Sequence record: OR455461.1
DNA length: 64,000 bases
Origin: Staphylococcus phage AH12
Reading direction: 5' to 3' (one strand)
Shown: one piece after another, positions 28,173 through 31,727 of the stretch
Position numbering within the stretch: the first letter of the stretch is position 1
Layout: each line of letters begins with the position of its first letter
Notes under the pieces: model-generated
Told to the model about the DNA's origin: nothing
The model's database searches: none
The model's input: only the letters and a program-made list of their open reading frames with translations
Program-made: the position numbers and the translations under genes

Positions 28173-31100
28173 TTAATTTGTTTTAATAATTGATGCATCA
28201 ACACAATACTCACTATCATTTAATTTCATTAAAGGATTTCCGAAAGTTGTACGTTTATAAGTGTTTATTTCAGATAAAGGTACATTGATAGTTTTATTTT
28301 CAGTAACTAATAATAGATTGTCTTCTTCATCATTATCAATCATACTAATGTACATTACTGAATCTTTATCATCTTTAAATTTAGCTGCAATAACTCCTTT
28401 AATTGATCTAGATTTAACTGGTATCTCATCTATTTCAACTTTCTTAGCTAAACTTTTATGAGTGACAATTAGTACTTTATCTTGACCTGAATCAATGACA
28501 GTTGAAGCAACCTTATTATTTTTATTAATTGTAGTATTACTGAAAATAGCTGATCCTATAGTTGTTCGTTTTTGAACTGGAACTAACTCATGAGAGAATC
28601 TAATCATATTTCCCTTTTCAGATATCGCAACTAAATTAAAAGGTTTCTTAGAGTGTACATTATGAACATTTACAACTCTATCATCTTCATTAAGCTTAAT
28701 TAAAATTACTCCTGATCTACTAATTTCTTCAACCATAACCATTTTAATTTTATTTAATTCAGTAGTGACTACAAAAGCTGTATCTGGGTCTTTTAATTCT
28801 TCATCAGTTAATGTGAAAGCTTTAACGATATTTTCTTTTTTAGTAAATCTAGTAATATCTTTACCAAAGTTATTTAATGATTTAATTTCTGGGAATTCAT
28901 ATACCTTATCATAGAATAACTTACCTTGATCTGTTACTAGGAATAAATTATCTTTACTATTAGCGTTGAATATATTTAGAGGTACATCTCCATCAGATAA
29001 TTTGCCAATACTAATACCTTTACCATTACGTTTTTGAGGTTTACTCACTTCAGCTTTAACCTTTTTAATTTTACCCTGTTTAGTTATAATGACCATGAAT
29101 TCTTCATCTTTAACTAATAAATCTTTATTGTCTGATTTAAAATCTAAATCGGAATATTTAGTAATTCTAGTTCTCTTAAGTGTATTTTTATCTTTCTTAA
29201 TTTCTTTTAATTCTTCTACAATAAGATTTTTTAGTTTATTAACATCTTTCATGTATTCCATTTCAGAATTAACTATTTCTTCTTTTTCATTCTTTTCTTC
29301 AATAAGTTTATTTACTTCAAGATTATTAATTGTATATAGCTTCATATCAGCTACATATGCTGCTTGAGCATGTGATATATTAAATTTCTTACTAACTGTA
29401 TCAATAATATCTTCTTTACCTTTACCAGACTTAACAATCTTAATTAATTGATCTATATTCTTAGAATCTAATACAACTAGCAATCCTTCTATAATATGAA
29501 TACGACTTCTTAAATCTTTAATTTTAAATGACTTAATACGTTTAACAGTAGATTGTCTAAATTCAATCCATCTATCAAGAATATTTAATAAATTAGTTTC
29601 AATAAGCTTATTATTATCTACTAATTTAATATCAAAATTAACTCTAGAAGTTACAGTTTTAATTTTATATAATTGATTAAGTGCTAAATCTAAGTCTGTC
29701 GATTTTGTATATTGTAATATTAAATTAACATTACCTTTTTGAGATCCATCAGAAATATTCTTAAGTCCATCTAATCTTTCTTCTTTATAAGCTTCTTTAA
29801 TAGCTTCAATCATTCTTTCTAAAGTTATATTATATGGAATTTCTGTTATTGTTAATGTAGATTTACTTTCATCTTTTTCAATAACTGATCTTAATAACAT
29901 TGATCCTTTTCCTGTTCGATAATATTTCTCTAGATCATCTACATAAGCTTCTCCACCATAAGGAAATTGTGGTCTAAAATTATTATCTTTAATTAATGTC
30001 TTCAATTGTTTATTAGGATTTTTAAGTCTATCAATAGTAATATTAACTACATCATTAATATCATGTGGAGGTAAATCAGAACGATGTCCTCCTCCACCAA
30101 TACCAAAACTACCATTGACTAATATATAAGGTAATTTAGAAGGTAACACTAAAGGTTCTAACATTGATCCATCAAAGTTTTTAACCATATTAACTGCATT
30201 ATCATTGATATTATCTAATAAGTTTCTTTCTGAGAACTTATTCAATCTCATCTCTGTATTATGGTGAATAAAACCTTCAGCCATAAATGAGTGGTCTTCA
30301 GTATCAACTCTAATTGAGTATACAGTTTCTTCTTCATCTAAAGATTTAATAGATTTAACTTTATCAAAATATGTGTTATTATCTAAATACTTAGATATGA
30401 ATAATAGTAAGTGATCATTATCCAATATTTCAATACCATATTCTTCCTCTAATAGATTAAAATTATTTAAGAAATTCTTTCTTGTATTGAATAATTCTGG
30501 ATAAAAGTAATTAGTCATTTTTCTTTCATCTAATACTTCATCTAAGAAAGGTATAATTTGATATTTATTAGGTTTATCATCTCTGTACATATCTATTATA
30601 CTTTCGATTTTACTATTATATAGTTCATCATCTTTAATTAAATGATTAACTAAGTTTTTAAGTGAATGAATATCTTGTATTTGTAGTCTAAACGTATCAG
30701 TACTGAATTCATTTATCACAGAATATATTCCAAATTGAGATAATAATACAGATATTTCTTGCATAAATCGTTTACTATAACTTTCTATAATTAAACCAAC
30801 ATTATCTACAATCTCACTATCTTGTCTAAATAATTCCATTAAAAATTCTCTTTTATATCCTAAACAAGCTTCAAGAATTTTATCAGGTAATATTTTTTCA
30901 GTCTCAATAGATTTCATTAAAATTCCATATTCAGGGTCTAAAGTCTTTTTAAAATATTTTTGAGATAAAAGTTCTCCCCATTTTCTAAAGCTCTCTTTTT
31001 CATTATCATTTAGATTTTTACTTCTGAAATCCTTAAGATCATTCTTTTGTAAAGTTCTATTTATCAAGTAATCATCTTCATTAATTTCATCCATTGTCTT

Positions 31101-31727
31101 CCATTTAAAGTCTAAACCTTTACTTTCATGTTTAGTAATAGTTAATAAAGGATGATTTGATGTTGCTTTAATATTCTTACCAGATTCAGTTTCTAATTCC
31201 ATTACTTTATGTTTTCCTGAATTAAAGAACTTACTAGCTTTTACTGATTTTCTTCTAAAATCTTTTACTACTTTATCAATATTATGTGTAGTATCTAAAT
31301 CTGTATTAGGTACAATATCTTTAATACGTTTTAGTTCACCTTCAGATAATTCTACAATATGATTTCCTGTTAAACAATAACGTGAAGCGGCTGCAGAAGC
31401 TCCTGTAATAGAACCAAATGCACCATGTCCTTCAATTAATGGTTGGTTCATAGAAAACGGTGTAATCATATTAACAGCAGAATCATAAATACCATCATTA
31501 CTATGTGGATGTAATATAGTAGTATCACCAGCAATTCTAGCAGATTTAGCAAATTTCTTATCGGATCTATAACCGTTTTTATACATAATGTATAATATTT
31601 TTCTTTGAATAGGTTTCAAACCATCTCTAATATCTGGTATTTGACGATTTGTATTAATCTCATTAAAATAAATCATCATATTATCATGAACTACTTCTTT
31701 TAAATCTTTCTTAAAAATCTCTGCCAT
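28173..31727 (-). CDS. gyrA-like: DNA topoisomerase II subunit A (GyrA/T4 gp52-like) containing an intein
   Basis: The N-terminus IRDGLKPIQRKILY...GHGAFGSITGASAAASRY (active-site Tyr) is followed by C...HN then TEMRL (AAMRY-TE site), and the rest of the cleavage-religation domain follows. Confidence 0.75.
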   Translation of the reverse strand: MAEIFKKDLKEVVHDNMMIYFNEINTNRQIPDIRDGLKPIQRKILYIMYKNGYRSDKKFAKSARIAGDTTILHPHSNDGIYDSAVNMITPFSMNQPLIEGHGAFGSITGASAAASRYCLTGNHIVELSEGELKRIKDIVPNTDLDTTHNIDKVVKDFRRKSVKASKFFNSGKHKVMELETESGKNIKATSNHPLLTITKHESKGLDFKWKTMDEINEDDYLINRTLQKNDLKDFRSKNLNDNEKESFRKWGELLSQKYFKKTLDPEYGILMKSIETEKILPDKILEACLGYKREFLMELFRQDSEIVDNVGLIIESYSKRFMQEISVLLSQFGIYSVINEFSTDTFRLQIQDIHSLKNLVNHLIKDDELYNSKIESIIDMYRDDKPNKYQIIPFLDEVLDERKMTNYFYPELFNTRKNFLNNFNLLEEEYGIEILDNDHLLLFISKYLDNNTYFDKVKSIKSLDEEETVYSIRVDTEDHSFMAEGFIHHNTEMRLNKFSERNLLDNINDNAVNMVKNFDGSMLEPLVLPSKLPYILVNGSFGIGGGGHRSDLPPHDINDVVNITIDRLKNPNKQLKTLIKDNNFRPQFPYGGEAYVDDLEKYYRTGKGSMLLRSVIEKDESKSTLTITEIPYNITLERMIEAIKEAYKEERLDGLKNISDGSQKGNVNLILQYTKSTDLDLALNQLYKIKTVTSRVNFDIKLVDNNKLIETNLLNILDRWIEFRQSTVKRIKSFKIKDLRSRIHIIEGLLVVLDSKNIDQLIKIVKSGKGKEDIIDTVSKKFNISHAQAAYVADMKLYTINNLEVNKLIEEKNEKEEIVNSEMEYMKDVNKLKNLIVEELKEIKKDKNTLKRTRITKYSDLDFKSDNKDLLVKDEEFMVIITKQGKIKKVKAEVSKPQKRNGKGISIGKLSDGDVPLNIFNANSKDNLFLVTDQGKLFYDKVYEFPEIKSLNNFGKDITRFTKKENIVKAFTLTDEELKDPDTAFVVTTELNKIKMVMVEEISRSGVILIKLNEDDRVVNVHNVHSKKPFNLVAISEKGNMIRFSHELVPVQKRTTIGSAIFSNTTINKNNKVASTVIDSGQDKVLIVTHKSLAKKVEIDEIPVKSRSIKGVIAAKFKDDKDSVMYISMIDNDEEDNLLLVTENKTINVPLSEINTYKRTTFGNPLMKLNDSEYCVDASIIKTN
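30258..31376 (-). mobile_element. intein (373 aa) inserted after the active-site tyrosine of the GyrA-like subunit
   Basis: It starts with Cys immediately after SRY, ends HHN and is followed by Thr. The central region carries LAGLIDADG-type blocks (LGYKREFLMELF..., SKRFMQEISVLLSQFG). Confidence 0.65.

Follow-up and report, generated by a model that had tools for sequence, protein, structure and literature searches.

What is the 373-residue element that interrupts gyrA of Staphylococcus phage AH12 directly after the codon for the catalytic tyrosine, does it splice itself out of the gyrase subunit, and does it still move by homing? The question is posed by a 64,000-nucleotide stretch of this phage (sequence record OR455461.1; the whole stretch is hereafter called the window), in which an original prediction, made from the sequence alone, had recognised an intein with an active or recently active LAGLIDADG homing endonuclease. 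Our follow-up leads to a joint answer that we consider highly probable: the element is a class 1 GyrA intein, its endonuclease is a remnant that does not home, and it is inherited vertically under constraint for folding and splicing.

The anatomy of the locus can be read directly. The gyrA precursor is encoded on the minus strand by one open reading frame (28173..31727; 3555 nucleotides including the stop codon, 1184 residues), in which N-extein, intein and C-extein share a single frame. The N-extein (31377..31727, minus strand; residues 1–117) ends in the catalytic-tyrosine motif SAAASRY, with the Tyr117 codon at 31377..31379; the 373-residue intein (30258..31376, minus strand; precursor residues 118–490) runs from Cys1 to Asn373, as delimited by Pfam, by homology with the Mycobacterium xenopi (Mxe) GyrA intein and by the annotation of phage Machias; and the C-extein (28173..30257, minus strand; residues 491–1184 and the stop codon) begins with the +1 nucleophile Thr491 of TEMRL (codon 30255..30257). 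In translation, the precursor reads …GASAAASRY117/C118LTGNHIV…EGFIHHN490/T491EMRLNKF…, the codons at the intein ends being 31376..31374 for Cys118 and 30260..30258 for Asn490. The coordinates and length first proposed are therefore exact to the codon, and the placement directly after the catalytic tyrosine is borne out at both junctions (SRY117 then Cys118; HHN490 then TEMRL).

Pfam breaks DNA_topoisoIV into two stretches on the precursor (E=1.1e-89) and finds six DNA_gyraseA_C stretches, which are the C-terminal beta-pinwheel repeats of GyrA. The Hint-type splicing domain that had been anticipated is detected both in the precursor (Intein_splicing, E=1.8e-21) and in the excised intein alone (PF14890, E=6.4e-24; 84.9 bits, cutoff 35.8), a match far above chance level by which, on sequence grounds, we judge the intein to be real. 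Removal of residues 118–490 from the 1184-residue reading frame yields a predicted GyrA product of 811 residues, the length expected earlier, and the spliced extein gives a single unbroken DNA_topoisoIV match (profile positions 1–432 of 432, E=3.2e-102), which upholds the claim that contiguous GyrA sequence flanks the intein. The corresponding intein-less gyrA DNA would have the junction …GCCGCTTCACGTTAT/ACAGAGATGAGATTG…, also written ACAGGAGCTTCTGCAGCCGCTTCACGTTAT/ACAGAGATGAGATTGAATAAGTTCTCAGAA. The subunit had been labelled GyrA-like/gp52, and only the first half of that label can stay: a T4 gp52-type subunit is ruled out by the beta-pinwheel repeats.

To which kind of intein does the element belong? 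Its sequence assigns it to the class 1, cis-splicing inteins, and within these to the classical GyrA allele, in frame between Tyr117 and Thr491. The N-terminal splicing (HINT) region (31047..31376, minus strand; intein residues 1–110) carries Cys1 in block A and Thr72-x-x-His75 in block B (ATSNHPLL), and the C-terminal splicing region (30258..30386, minus strand; intein residues 331–373) carries block F, VYSIRVDTEDHSF, and block G, GFIHHN, whose His372 and Asn373 are followed by Thr+1 (…GFIHHN/TEMRL). Cys1 is invariant among 14 aligned GyrA inteins as well as in all ten phages that we compared (the window and nine database relatives); N74, H75 and P76 of block B are invariant across the same 14 inteins, and C1, T72, H75, the D/H residues of block F, H372, N373 and T+1 are identical in ten of the ten phages. 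The best sequence match in the PDB is the Mxe GyrA intein (1AM2), found across both splicing halves at E=3.4e-21 and by profile at 3.5e-50, with DnaB inteins reaching only 1e-5 by single sequence; the top metagenomic matches to the phage intein are GyrA inteins too. By sequence, the element thus lies nearer to the inteins of GyrA than to those of other host proteins. An AlphaFold2 model computed from a 25-sequence alignment has a mean pLDDT (predicted local distance difference test) of 75.9 and a pTM (predicted template modelling score) of 0.78, with the splicing halves at about 90 or more overall (N-terminal region about 90 or above, C-terminal region 86–95). Foldseek aligns this model with 1AM2 at E=1.5e-12 and a template modelling (TM) score of 0.82 normalised by target; the best whole-model matches in the PDB are TliVMA (3e-15) and PI-PfuI (2.4e-13), with PI-SceI and PI-PkoII also among them.

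The insertion point, between the active-site Tyr and the Thr-Glu of GyrA (SAAASRY/C…N/TEMRL), is the one classically occupied by GyrA inteins. When 1.84 billion cluster representatives were searched exhaustively with HMMER, 435 matched at E≤1e-3, and at least 96 of the best 150 of these are GyrA proteins with an intein in the context RY/C…HN/TE; the SAAASRY of the phage aligns with the AAMRY of 96 other GyrA proteins that have their intein at this same point. Named carriers are bacterial and archaeal metagenome-assembled genomes (Propionibacteriales, Nanoarchaeota). Viral carriers are also present in IMG/VR, where at least six contigs have a GyrA-site intein (L010, L011, L012, L019/L020 and L035, the last a contig of 320 kb). 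These GyrA-site inteins are distant ones, and the rest of what the IMG/VR profile scan found consists of inteins of other host proteins, many inserted directly after a G-K motif; an IMG/VR scan with the full precursor found no close relative, and a word-indexed protein search with the intein alone as query returned just two close fragments. The closest relative outside Staphylococcus phages is a metagenomic protein, P0003, with an extein much like the phage GyrA and an intein that is 40% identical.

Within the annotated phage collection, an intein at the GyrA site is restricted to the Staphylococcus jumbo clade. The gyrA DNA of the window is 96.2% identical to that of the Staphylococcus jumbo phages Machias and vB_StaM_PB50 and 80–83% identical to that of S6, PALS_2, DC4, Madawaska, MarsHill, LY01 and SA1; all nine match over the whole gyrA query, and the intein is present in all nine as in the window, with a length of 373–374 residues. 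At the protein level, the window intein is 94.9% identical to those of Machias and PB50 and 63–76% identical to those of the other phages, and identity over all ten phages is 62–78%. No intein-less gyrA allele was found within the clade (nine database relatives and the window); the nearest intein-less homologue is the GyrA of Listeria phage LPJP1, which at 47% identity aligns uninterrupted across the site. As a separate observation, the intein-bearing gyrA of LY01 (OR836606) is interrupted a second time, between GKLSDG and D(V/I)PLNIF, by a 1998-bp insertion (4744..6741) encoding a 401-residue protein of TnpB/IS605 OrfB type (OrfB_IS605, 8.6e-18; Cas12f1-like TNB, 7e-19); this insertion may be removed in the manner of an IStron or may just break the gene.

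How would such an intein leave its host protein? From homology with the Mxe GyrA intein, we infer splicing by the standard four-step class 1 pathway. An N–S acyl shift at Cys1, helped by Thr72 and His75 of block B, would be followed by transesterification onto the +1 Thr, which would serve as the second nucleophile as it does in mycobacterial GyrA inteins; cyclisation of Asn373, with His372 assisting, would then release the intein, and an O–N shift would complete the reaction, the products being the 373-residue intein and an active GyrA of 811 residues. The intein lies within the conserved RY-TE, between the catalytic Tyr and the residue after it, and therefore the precursor should be inactive; because the insert splits the active-site loop, efficient splicing is presumably required for phage gyrase function.

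What, then, remains of the endonuclease between the two splicing regions? The helix of LAGLIDADG motif 1 (30951..31007, minus strand; intein residues 124–142; …FRKWGELLSQKYF) is degenerate, with Gln standing for the acidic residue and Lys for Gly: the window has KWGELLSQKYF where full-size relatives have LLGALISEG(F/Y). What stands for the acidic residue varies among the phages: the window shares Gln with Machias and PB50, the MarsHill group and LY01 have Asn, and SA1 has His; the motif variants are LLSQKY, ILSNKY and VISHKN. Directly after this helix, alignment with GyrA inteins of 405–450 residues reveals the absence of about 70 residues, which are the beta-sheet of the first half-domain. 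The second half-domain is retained (30579..30863, minus strand; intein residues 172–266); its motif 2, REFLMELFRQDSEI, is recognisable against FLxxLFEGDGS and keeps Asp186, an Asp conserved in ten of ten phages (FRQDS, FKQDG, FKHDA), and beta-beta-alpha-beta-beta-alpha follows. A helical linker (30387..30578, minus strand; intein residues 267–330) then leads from the remnant to the C-terminal splicing region; it is conserved among the phages, and pLDDT is below 50 for residues 267–316 and 319–330. In the AlphaFold model, the helix at 124–142 stands alone with no real sheet after it, and a full alpha-beta-beta-alpha-beta-beta-alpha unit is found only at 172–245.

Profile scores convey the same degeneracy. 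LAGLIDADG_3, for which the Pfam gathering cutoff is 22.5 bits, scores 19.0 bits on the excised intein in one stretch (residues 175–234) and 14.0 bits within the precursor, against 81 bits in two stretches on two full-size GyrA inteins. MarsHill (25.9 bits) and SA1 (22.6 bits) are barely above the cutoff, each with one stretch, and the Pfam search found no LAGLIDADG_3 match in P0003. The LAGLIDADG resemblance expected from the start is thus detectable, as a single half-domain under the threshold. In a single-chain LAGLIDADG enzyme, double-strand cleavage requires both halves and both acidic residues. The window intein has neither two acidic motifs nor two half-domains nor a score at the gathering cutoff; because the sheet of one half-domain and one acidic residue are gone, both of which are needed for double-strand cleavage, the domain is most likely an inactive, truncated remnant. 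The truncation is common to lineages separated by synonymous distances (dS) above 0.8, and the loss is therefore ancient rather than recent.

These observations bear on the possibility that the intein carries a working or very recently inactivated LAGLIDADG homing endonuclease and is spreading into intein-less gyrA alleles, which was the view of the original prediction and which we regard as unlikely. Its appeal is that a LAGLIDADG-type half-domain, complete with the motif 2 Asp, is recognisable in all ten phages, that such a domain was also reported with InterPro/Pfam by Korn et al. (bioRxiv 10.1101/2020.12.14.422802) and by the authors of the DC4 paper (PMC10638138), and that purifying selection acts on the central region, as it would on a functional enzyme. 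Yet no homing is expected because only the helix is left of the first half-domain, with the DNA-binding beta-sheet gone and the acidic residue replaced (Q/N/H, with Gly to Lys beside it); LAGLIDADG_3 gives one stretch of 19–26 bits in the phage inteins; the truncation is old; and with no intein-less allele found in the clade there would be no homing target.

A further argument for homing comes from the trees. Neighbour-joining trees of the ten phages, rooted with P0003, differ in topology: by its extein SA1 falls in with the MarsHill group, by its intein it is the outlier, and the ratio of intein to extein nonsynonymous distance (dN) has an approximately four-fold spread between phage pairs, so that past transfer of the intein between lineages is possible. 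On the other hand, the trees have a short internal branch and a long outgroup branch, and the ratios of intein to extein dS are alike among pairs. The disagreement could reflect recombination or intein exchange, or it could reflect rate variation and long-branch attraction. We looked for a foreign base composition of the intein relative to the surrounding gene and did not find one (GC 24.1% in the intein vs 26.1% in the host gene; GC at third codon positions 12.6% vs 12.2%), and this match indicates long residence of the intein in gyrA. Most likely, then, the element is no longer mobile by homing and is fixed and vertically inherited in the phage clade.

If the endonuclease is dead, why has it been kept? 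Pairwise Nei-Gojobori comparisons among three phage lineages, with bootstrap limits, give rough dN/dS values of 0.15–0.34 in every intein sub-region, from the N-splicing half through the motif 1 stub, second half-domain and low-confidence linker to the C-splicing half, and all bootstrap upper limits are below 1. The linker itself (residues 267–330) is at 0.15–0.21, and the C-extein, at 0.13–0.19 in comparisons with the window's lineage, is much like the intein. The conservation is an observation; as its cause, we infer, most plausibly, that the remnant is kept because its fold is needed for the folding of the precursor and the splicing of an essential protein. There is precedent in the Mja TFIIB intein, in which removal of the endonuclease domain can inactivate splicing (review, PMC7765530).

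Could the remnant and linker instead be under selection for an acquired role, either in conditional splicing that gates gyrase or as a nickase with one active site that promotes gene conversion? We think this quite improbable, and the same goes, with slightly more reserve, for its first form taken alone, in which splicing would depend on conditions such as temperature and the intein would have been co-opted as a post-translational switch for phage gyrase. Conditional splicing would account for selection on a non-catalytic middle part within an intein that is under purifying selection throughout; an unspliced precursor with its active-site loop split should be inactive; and the intein carriers MarsHill, Madawaska, Machias and S6 grow at 30 °C and give no plaques or propagation at 37 °C. 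Were it true, splicing that is permissive at or below 30 °C and blocked at 37 °C would explain the failure of the clade to grow at 37 °C. The temperature argument is purely correlative, however, since many other phage functions could be temperature-sensitive; no sequence feature pointing to a sensor is present, and constitutive, efficient splicing accounts equally well for the purifying selection. The weakest alternative, an extremely improbable one that draws on splicing in these phages being known by prediction, is that a dead intein or inserted domain stays in place and the protein works at its full 1184 residues: all class 1 splicing residues are kept in ten phages despite 62–78% intein identity, 373 residues between the catalytic Tyr and TE are unlikely to be tolerated at the cleavage-religation site, and the Mxe GyrA intein at the same site was captured as a protein-splicing intermediate in structure 4OZ6.

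Some points weigh against the reading that we prefer, a vertically inherited class 1 intein with a non-homing remnant. Splicing in the window protein and in the phage homologues is predicted, and the published boundaries are likewise predictions. The alignment behind the AlphaFold model is shallow (25 sequences), and residues 267–330 are modelled with low confidence. Synonymous distances of 0.8–1.6 are near saturation, which makes the dN/dS values rough. Additionally, the motif 2 Asp is kept and the remnant is under selection, so that some residual DNA-directed activity may be conceivable.

The other topoisomerase gene of the window, gyrB, is interrupted as well. It lies on the minus strand from 40511 to 37908 in three exons (40511..38997, 38819..38226 and 38081..37908), and its spliced product is 760 residues long and in frame. 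The introns emerged when the sequence was compared with Machias and searched for the core motif. Intron 1 (38996..38820, minus strand; 177 nucleotides) follows IIITSDAD at the conserved SDAD/DDG, and intron 2 (38225..38082, minus strand; 144 nucleotides) follows YFKGLG at the conserved KGLG/E. Intron 2 is absent from the 96%-identical Machias, and therefore intron content differs between near-identical phages. In gyrA we found no intron; the three introns originally counted for the topoisomerase II genes thus reduce to two, both in gyrB. In Machias (1..494, compared with window 40403..40511), a gene annotated 'transposase', of the size of the LY01 TnpB-type reading frame, lies directly upstream of gyrB, and gyrB is annotated from a start that matches Met37 of the window GyrB; the window has the canonical GyrB N-terminus (…LEGLEAVRHRSDMYVG…), which in Machias seems to have been displaced or removed.

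Both gyrB introns belong to a family with conserved group-I-like P, Q, R and S elements (AATTGCTGAGA, ATCAGCATC, GTTCAACGACTAAATA and AGATATAGTCT). The core-motif search found 11 R-like core copies across the window, every one of them on the minus strand (6693, 6913, 7158, 7348, 9438, 10176, 25811, 26061, 26262, 38136 and 38888), against a chance expectation of 0.06. The two gyrB copies both have T as the last letter of the 5' exon and G as the last letter of the intron, and minimum-free-energy folds contain P4- and P7-like pairings; for group I introns, the 144–177 nucleotides of these two delimited copies would be an unusually small size. Rfam found no group I intron or other relevant RNA, either in the whole window at the gathering score or in 24–41 kb at E≤1. 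Three of the cores (25811..26277, minus strand) lie downstream of the open reading frame at 26341..28026, in the gene for the beta subunit of the virion RNA polymerase, which is the immediate downstream neighbour of gyrA; the same gene of Machias has two cores only and is annotated with three exons. These three cores may be the source of the earlier three-intron count.

The gyrA/gyrB region is generally rich in selfish elements. Two free-standing homing endonuclease genes of HNH type are found on the minus strand, one between gyrA and gyrB (33231..33665; HNH_3) and a larger one upstream of gyrB (42374..43765; HNH_3 and NUMOD4).

How much of this is new? The intein, its boundaries and the LAGLIDADG label were already known from GenBank and from two papers on relatives. 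In GenBank MW349128 (Machias), the product is named 'intein-containing DNA gyrase subunit A', and its mat_peptide 'intein' spans gene positions 352–1470, that is, residues 118–490, boundaries identical to those of the window intein. In MarsHill gp228, the intein was placed between Y117 and T492 and a LAGLIDADG domain was reported, and the AR9 homologue was described as being without an intein and with two introns (Korn et al., bioRxiv 10.1101/2020.12.14.422802); the DC4 paper describes the same intein and ascribes it to common ancestry (PMC10638138). With the intein of the relatives in GenBank and in print and the GyrA site a textbook one, the locus carries little weight as a discovery. New here are the recognition of the endonuclease as a half-deleted remnant on which purifying selection acts, and the count of two rather than three introns for gyrB. 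In practice, the genome annotation should carry the mature 811-residue GyrA and a three-exon gyrB, and the literature label 'homing endonuclease' would be better softened to 'truncated LAGLIDADG remnant'. The clade supplies a clean natural case of an intermediate between full-size and mini-inteins, its remnant still under selection, and such a case is relevant to the question of a structural entanglement between endonuclease domains and splicing.

Comparison with known systems locates this intermediate more closely. The GyrA inteins of the Staphylococcus jumbo phages (MarsHill, Madawaska, Machias, PB50, S6, PALS_2, DC4, LY01 and SA1) share gene, site and length with that of the window, which differs in no matter of substance and represents a slightly different isolate or lineage; the published accounts of these relatives name the middle part a LAGLIDADG homing endonuclease and leave the truncation and the lost acidic residue unmentioned. 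The M. xenopi GyrA mini-intein (1AM2, 4OZ6) shares the RY/C…HN/TE site, the +1 Thr, the class 1 residues and the blocks FNSGxH, NHPLL and VYSxRVDxxDHxF; it is a mini-intein of 198 residues that has lost its endonuclease wholly, and it resides in a bacterial host gyrase rather than in a phage gyrase. The solved endonuclease inteins TliVMA/PhoVMA (7QSS, 7QST), PI-PfuI (1DQ3), PI-PkoII (2CW7) and PI-SceI (1VDE) likewise combine HINT with an inserted LAGLIDADG domain, and they match the phage intein both by Foldseek (E 3e-15 to 1e-8) and by sequence profile; they sit at other sites in other host proteins, have two complete half-domains (with two acidic residues in those that are characterised endonucleases) and are only 10–17% identical to the phage intein. 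Full-size GyrA inteins typically have 405–450 residues and two intact LAGLIDADG motifs. Between these and the mini-intein stands the phage element, with 373 residues, one half-domain and a helix.

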